From: a virus
Lineage: Duplodnaviria; Heunggongvirae; Uroviricota; Caudoviricetes
Direction: 5' to 3' (one strand)
DNA length: 19,994 nucleotides
Virus record (IMG/VR): IMGVR_UViG_2695420538_000013
Shown one piece after another: positions 876 through 2,185 of this stretch. A program made the position numbers and the translations under genes. The notes beneath the pieces were generated by a model, which saw only the letters and a program-made list of their open reading frames with translations, did no database searches and was not told where the DNA came from. The number at the start of each line of letters is the position of its first letter. The stretch's first letter is position 1.

Positions 876-917
876 TGAACCGCCCCGGGTTTCCTGGAGA
901 GTGTTTTATCTGTGAAC

Positions 918-1808
918 TCAGGCTGCCAGATCATCGTTTCCGATGGAAGCATAATAAGCTTTTTCTGCTTCTGCCGGAGGAGTATGGCCCAGCCTTTCCA
1001 GCAATCGTCGATTGTTATACCAGTCCACCCACGTGAGTGTGGCCAGTTCCACTTCTGCACGGTTTTTCCAGCTCTTACGGTGTATTACCTCCGCTTTGTA
1101 AAGACCATTGATGCTCTCCGCCATCGCGTTGTCATACGAGTCGCCTGTACTTCCTGTTGATGCCAGTAATCCGGCTTCCTTAAGCCGCTGTGTGTAGGCC
1201 AGCGATACATACTGAGAACCTTTATCACTGTGATGGACCGTGCCGGACGGTCGACGGGCCCATAACGCCTGCTCCAGTGCATCCAGCACGAATGTCGTTT
1301 CCATGGACGATGAGACCCGCCACCCCACGATGTATCCGGCAAACACATCAATGATGAACGCCACATAGACGAAGCCCCGCCATGTGCTGACGTAAGTAAA
1401 ATCAGCCACCCACAGCTGGTCAGGTCGTTCTGCCACGAACTGACGGTTTACGCGGTCGCCTGCGACAACGGCTTTCCGGCTGATGGTCGTACGGACCTTT
1501 TTACCCCGGAGAACACCGGCAAGTCCCATAACCGCCATGAGACGTGCCACAGTGCATCTGGCCACTCTGATACCTTCCCGTAACAACTGACGCCAGACTT
1601 TACGCACACCGTATACCTTGTGATTTTCATCGTATACGCGCTGTATCTCTTTCTTCAGCCAGTCATCGCGCTGCGCACGGGCACTGCGTTTATCCGGATG
1701 ATGTCGCTGTTGCTGACAGTGGTAATACGTTGACGGGGCAATATGCAGTTCGCTGCATAGCGGTCCGACCCCGTACTGCTCACGCAGCTTATCCAGCAGT
1801 GGCATCAT
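918..1808 (-). CDS. IS3-family transposase OrfB (DDE integrase/catalytic domain)
   Basis: 296 aa with rve-type DDE motifs (WVADFTYV..., HSDKGSQY..., [16 protein letters not shown]). In the -1 frame relative to orfA with a 4-nt overlap. Confidence 0.9.
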
Positions 1809-2131
1809 TTTTTCCAGAGGCGGTCGAACTCCGCCTTCGCAAAATAAGCGGAAGCCTGGCGAAGGATATCGTTACTGCGGCGCAGTTCACGATTTTCACG
1901 TTCCAGCTCTTTCAGACGCTGACGTTCAGCGGTGGTGAGCCCTCCATCACCGCCCCCGGTATCCCGCTCATGCTGGCGAACCCAGACACGCAGAGTCTCC
2001 GGCGTACAGCCAATCTTTGGAGCAATGGAACAAATTGTCGCCCATTGTGAGTCATATTCGCTCTGACTTTCCAGAACCATACGGACTGCCCGTTGACGGA
2101 CTTCGGGGGAAAAACGAGTATTTTTAGTCAT
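1805..2131 (-). CDS. IS3-family transposase OrfA (HTH DNA-binding, leucine-zipper part)
   Basis: 108 aa [22 protein letters not shown]...[36 protein letters not shown], recognised as IS629/IS3-group OrfA. Ends in an A6 run overlapping the orfB start, consistent with programmed -1 frameshifting. Confidence 0.9.
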
Positions 2132-2185
2132 CCTGTTTACCTCTTTCTCAGGAAGTTTAGTCTCCAGGATTCCCGGGGCGGTTCA

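Follow-up and report, generated by a model that had tools for sequence, protein, structure and literature searches.

Probable inactivation of the integrase of a thrS-linked lambdoid prophage by a single recent insertion of an IS629/IS1203-group element

Introduction

Insertion sequences (IS) of the IS3 family transpose by a copy-out-paste-in route and a duplication of 3 bp is usual. Elements of the IS629/IS1203/IS3411 group have ends reading TG...CA, imperfect terminal repeats of 25 nt, a 3-bp duplication, an orfA with a helix-turn-helix (HTH) and an orfB with an rve DDE domain. Their two open reading frames (ORFs) stand in -1 phase and are accompanied by an A6 run and an ALIL pseudoknot. In the isoform rule of ISfinder, membership is set at a nucleotide identity of at least 95% to a named element.

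The erosion of Escherichia coli prophages by IS elements is well documented. Insertions of the IS629 type have been documented in genes of EHEC prophages, those for integration and excision among them, for example that of IS629 in the excisionase gene of an Stx2c prophage, and prophage regions are favoured IS locations (PMC5359411). The case described here is an ordinary one and adds one more example. The window that was analysed, a stretch of viral DNA of 19 994 nt, contains an integrase gene interrupted by an element with the structural features listed above for the group. As in the Stx2c prophage (PMC5359411), the integration/excision module that an IS629-type element has entered belongs to a lambdoid prophage, and an effect on induction and excision is expected. 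In the Stx2c prophage the element hits xis, whereas here it hits int; the prophage, the integrase family, the attachment site (here the thrS leader) and the strain background also differ.

The described integrases to be compared with the interrupted one are those of Salmonella phage vB_SosS_Oslo and of the mEp021-like phages. They have the length of 402 aa and the Arm-DNA-bind_3 architecture in common with it and are collinear with it across the insertion point, whereas the copy in the window is split by an IS. In lambda, int and xis are codirectional. At the present locus, int and the candidate excisionase gene are convergent, and where the integrase match in the mEp021 record has its 3' end, a helix-turn-helix protein is likewise annotated.

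We describe the anatomy of this insertion, its predicted effect on the integrase and the prophage in which it occurred. Very probably, a single recent insertion of an IS629/IS1203-group element in codon 292 of the integrase gene of a lambdoid prophage of ~47 kb duplicated an ATA target and inactivated Int.

Results

The integrase gene is found on the plus strand of the window in two parts. The 5' part (1-875), made up of codons 1-291 and 2 nt of codon 292, codes for the arm-binding domain (Arm-DNA-bind_3, residues 3-90), for the central domain and for the beginning of the catalytic domain (Phage_integrase, from residue 206), with Arg241. The 3' part (2189-2522) runs from the last nt of codon 292 to the stop codon and encodes His334, Arg337, His360 and Tyr369. 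The IS occupies 876-2185, on the minus strand, and is bordered by a left copy (873-875) and a right copy (2186-2188) of the ATA target-site duplication.

Joining 1-875 to 2189-2522 gave a sequence of 1209 nt with a single open frame of 402 aa; when both ATA copies were kept in the join, a TAA stop appeared. The join was found at 100% identity and in one aligned piece in 73 of 5,426 complete E. coli genomes (at full length in 70), where the matching uninterrupted genes are annotated as tyrosine-type recombinase/integrase (WP_001196928.1). Since a natural uninterrupted gene matches the join at 100%, the empty site has one ATA and the boundaries of the insertion are exact. The preliminary description, made from the letters of the window, had placed the IS precisely inside the integrase ORF, had read an ATA target duplication and had rejoined the gene in frame by removing the IS and one ATA. 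Each of these readings was borne out by comparison with the uninterrupted gene.

Full-length homologues of the rejoined integrase were also found in a phage collection, from which the phage relatives were drawn. They aligned end to end in one piece, with identities of 74.9% for vB_SosS_Oslo, 48% for Proteus phage Pm34 and ~44% for mEp phages. In Pfam, the rejoined protein matched Arm-DNA-bind_3 (PF13356, 73 bits) at residues 3-90 and the catalytic domain Phage_integrase (PF00589) at residues 206-371. The integrase N-terminal domains of PDB 3ju0 and 3jtz also matched the arm domain. An alignment to XerH (5jjv) served to locate the catalytic motifs, which are TGCR241, H334DLR337, GH360 and VY369.

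The element is a 1310-bp member of the IS3 family whose transposase genes lie on the minus strand, antisense to int. Its ends read 5'-TG...CA-3'; its first letters are TGAACCGCCCCGGG and its last letters are the complement of TGAACCGCCCCGGG. The terminal inverted repeats, of which one is distal to orfA (IRR, 876-900) and the other upstream of it (IRL, 2161-2185), are 25 nt long. They are complementary at 23 of 25 positions (92%) and form the longest inverted pair of the region. orfA (1805-2131, minus strand, 108 aa, HTH_Tnp_1) and orfB (918-1808, minus strand, 296 aa) are both open, and orfB is in -1 phase relative to orfA. The orfB product carries HTH_21 and the rve domain, the DDE integrase core (97 bits, Pfam). 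The two ORFs overlap in the sequence TGG AAA AAA TGA TG, and a 404-aa OrfAB fusion would result if the ribosome slipped by -1 at the A6 run (1808-1813, minus strand). The ALIL frameshift pseudoknot (Rfam RF01497) was found on the minus strand at 1734-1850 with 120.2 bits (gathering score 50), an E value of 3.3e-31 and coverage of model positions 1-117 of 117. Both parts of a programmed -1 frameshift signal, the A-rich slippery run and a downstream structure, are thus present in the IS.

E. coli has hundreds of copies of the IS that are identical over the whole 1310 bp; they were found on plasmids as well as at many unrelated loci of the chromosome. The element is a multi-copy repeat present at a median of 4 places per genome, and copies with 100% identity also occur in the closest strain, 28Eco12. 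For one of the identical copies, the PGAP annotation gives a transposase that is intact, together with a programmed frameshift and a pseudoknot. Identity was 97.6% to an IS3-family copy in strain 23CRST050, 96.3% (49 mismatches) to a copy labelled IS1203 family by PGAP in strain 22AR0747, and 99.1-99.4% to copies on a Shigella dysenteriae plasmid and on an E. coli plasmid carrying ipaH. As judged against annotated copies, the IS is therefore aptly called IS629-like and probably belongs to the IS629/IS1203 isoform group. It is nearer to the type of the Shigella plasmid than to the IS1203 type of PGAP, the label given to O157 and O111 copies, and differs from the O157-type variant by the 49 mismatches to the IS1203-labelled copy.

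The element had been called IS629-like and intact-looking, with both inverted repeats, orfA and orfB and an A6 run. This view is upheld, and the full-length pseudoknot can be added to it. The putative transposition competence of the IS, also proposed there, has indirect support from its intact anatomy and from the identical copies at many sites.

In strain MMC-J-0066 (NZ_CM128546.1, L011:3458-5310), an identical IS abuts a truncated tyrosine recombinase near ypjA. This arrangement was considered as the same event and was rejected, since the integrase is a different one.

The IS breaks int in codon 292 and parts Arg241 from His334, Arg337, His360 and Tyr369. Four of the five catalytic residues, including the nucleophile Tyr369, are encoded 3' of the element. 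From the normal start, the only possible product is a protein of 304 aa made of 291 residues of Int and 13 residues encoded by the IS; it keeps the arm-binding and core-binding domains and Arg241. The interrupted int is predicted to be catalytically dead, able neither to cleave nor to rejoin DNA, because His334, Arg337, His360 and Tyr369 are cut off, according to the established chemistry of tyrosine recombinases. With the catalytic Tyr, His and Arg lost, Int-dependent excision would be impossible in cis. An exact look-up of the 304-aa product found no record.

In relatives, the prophage is lambdoid, measures ~47 kb and is located between espL1 (arpB in K-12) and thrS, with espL1/yniD/ydiY as the left chromosomal flank. 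In strains 266917_2 and Z0117EC0051, the far prophage end adjoins thrS. In the comparison with K-12, chromosomal homology stops 29 bp upstream of the thrS start codon. A three-way alignment of attL, attR and the K-12 attB gave a common 23-bp att core, ACACGAAAGATCACATACAAAGA, at -29 to -51 from the thrS AUG (K-12 NC_000913.3, 1,802,599-1,802,621). In the 28Eco12 extracts, the core falls within L005:5838-5966 and L007:22041-22147. In relatives, attL is ~180 bp upstream of int and attR is beside thrS, the site itself lying beyond the window. Since the att core is found next to int and at both element ends, the interrupted gene is the prophage's own integrase. The prophage brings ~106 bp that are 87% similar to the thrS leader sequence that it displaces. 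The window contains a single occurrence of TTGTGTACC, a candidate arm-site motif, and this number is compatible with chance.

In the thrS leader, a hairpin whose stem is 7 bp and whose loop is 7 nt long (UUCGUGU) is predicted to overlap the att core. We take this hairpin to be the mimic of the tRNA-Thr anticodon arm in the thrS translational operator. The target of the phage thus appears to be a tRNA mimic instead of a tRNA gene. Nothing relevant on thrS as an attachment site of E. coli prophages came up in a literature search.

At the att-proximal end lies int, with its transcription directed into the prophage. An ORF of 76 aa (2480-2710, minus strand) is convergent with int and overlaps its 3' end by 43 bp (2480-2522); the ORF is left untouched by the IS. 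Its product gave a weak PHROG match to a DNA-binding protein (phrog_4745, E 1.8e-6) and no match to a Pfam family. We infer that it is a candidate excisionase. In relatives, the early region consists of this small convergent DNA-binding protein (candidate Xis), exo, bet, gam, kil and an S24-type repressor, followed by cro, O, P and ren. A DLP12-like block comes next (emrE, ybcK, ybcL, ybcM, ybcN, ninE, ybcO, rusA, ylcG and Q), then the lysis genes, at which the right end of the window falls. The downstream part in 28Eco12 is annotated as a complete lambda-like head and tail module. Among the genes carried by the prophage in relatives are emrE, iss and, in one arrangement, sitABCD. From the annotation of a relative (L001), the DLP12-type cargo located between ren and Q was mapped to 10435-12548 of the window; emrE, which encodes an SMR multidrug efflux protein, and the serine recombinase gene ybcK are part of it.

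The IS-int junction was covered by none of the 5,426 complete E. coli genomes, and exact 40-mers spanning it were found neither in GTDB species representatives nor in JGI metagenome contigs. When the IS was removed, the window matched its relatives without a break, with an identity of 100.0% for 28Eco12, Z0117EC0051 and some 20 further genomes and of 99.97% for 266917_2. As far as these comparisons go, the IS and the integrase are each 100% identical to RefSeq sequences and the junction alone is new. The simplest reading is that the insertion was a single, recent and strain-specific event, because the flanks equal uninterrupted alleles, the duplication is perfect, the IS equals its other copies and the junction is absent from the collections. 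A recent single event had also been proposed in the preliminary description, with which these data agree.

Sister copies of the prophage bear lesions of their own, which show that the element is decaying within its lineage. An IS1 is inserted in the same int gene in TUM10008. In 23CRST050, an IS is present in ylcG and the portal gene contains a stop; an IS is found in the terminase gene in 22AR0747 and in the tail fibre gene in Z0117EC0051. In GMF065, int is reduced to a remnant of 145 nt. From the copies compared, the prophage is a recurrent target of independent IS insertions in its lineage. The positions of the sister elements are L002:20584-21893 (ylcG), L003:24973-26282 (terminase), L010:2843-4071 (tail fibre) and NZ_CP135658.1 502,287-504,271 (IS1 in int).

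A frameshift disrupts rusA in the window, as it does in each of the sister copies examined. This lesion, being common to all copies examined, therefore predates the IS insertion. In the window, rusA (15491-15854) is split into ORFs of 36 aa and 93 aa.

Strain 28Eco12 has undergone an inversion of ~430 kb across the terminus region, by which the prophages at the thrS site and at the Rac/ttcA site have swapped halves. A comparison of the espL1-int spacer with the right end of the 28Eco12 hybrid gave only chance matches of 10-16 nt and no att repeat, and the inversion was therefore looked into. One hybrid reads espL1, int, lambda-like tail genes, then sitDCBA and uspF; the other reads thrS, tail fibres, racR, recET, xisR, intR and ttcA. 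In 28Eco12, ~430 kb therefore separate attL from attR, which are inverted relative to each other. The hybrids are located at 2,318,123-2,362,152 and 2,747,012-2,797,599 of NZ_CP038505.1. The inversion is absent from 266917_2 and Z0117EC0051, in which the same prophage is uninverted between espL1 and thrS. The inversion as a general lock of the prophage was rejected on account of these two strains.

Discussion

In the mechanism that we favour, a copy of an IS629/IS1203-group element would have been pasted once into codon 292 of int, in antisense orientation, creating the 3-bp ATA duplication. Without Int, excision of the prophage by attL x attR recombination would be blocked. Induction would lead at most to replication in situ, with little or no phage produced. 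The prophage would be effectively anchored unless Int came in trans or the IS left precisely. The IS in int thus likely locks the prophage in place, as read from the arrangement of the locus, although the lock is possibly redundant.

This redundancy is at the heart of the best alternative, according to which the insertion was neutral: the prophage could already have been unable to excise or to form particles, and the IS would be one more lesion. The frameshift of rusA in all copies examined, the independent lesions of the sister copies and the distant, inverted attL and attR of 28Eco12, a strain with 100% identity to the window apart from the IS, are in favour of it, and the IS may have struck an already immobile element. 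However, rusA is dispensable for the growth of lambdoid phages. In the uninverted 266917_2, it is the only lesion in the parts inspected, which lie outside the head and tail genes at ~580-596 kb. The head and tail module of 28Eco12 is annotated as complete, and the repressor, cro, O/P, Q and lysis genes of the window equal those of the sister copies. On these grounds, an ancestor that was excisable just before the IS insertion is plausible, and we consider neutrality possible but rather unlikely.

A second alternative is a reversible lock, in which the IS transposase and IEE would remove the IS precisely via the 3-bp repeats and restore int. IEE promotes the transposase-dependent excision of IS629-type elements (PMC9943667). 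IEE-mediated IS excision gave back lacZ function in O121:H19 (PMC9397093). Also in favour of this reading, the IS is intact here and the ATA duplication perfect. Nothing in the window suggests selection for reversibility, and most of the IEE-associated events described appear to be deletions and not exact restorations. We hold a reversible lock to be very improbable.

Its farther-reaching form, in which int would be restored in a subpopulation and mobility tied to IS activity, has only a slight chance of being true. A related and likewise improbable role concerns the interrupted gene itself: with its two DNA-binding domains retained, the truncated Int of 304 aa might still occupy arm and core sites and hinder related incoming phages. 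If the reversible lock were true, the mobility of the prophage would be conditional on IS activity.

The misplacement of a repeated IS into int by the assembler, conceivable for an element with a median of 4 places per genome, is scarcely credible: the sequence runs on unbroken across both junctions, no part of the element is missing and the ATA that the empty site has once is exactly duplicated, which is the signature of real transposition and a 3-bp duplication that an assembler has no reason to create.

A single recent insertion that inactivated Int is thus retained as the very probable reading. The correct annotation of the locus is a single disrupted gene, to which both integrase fragments belong, and a mobile element, the IS. 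Being strain-specific, the junction could serve as a marker for typing within the lineage. When inducibility or gene mobility is predicted, the prophage should be scored as int-defective.
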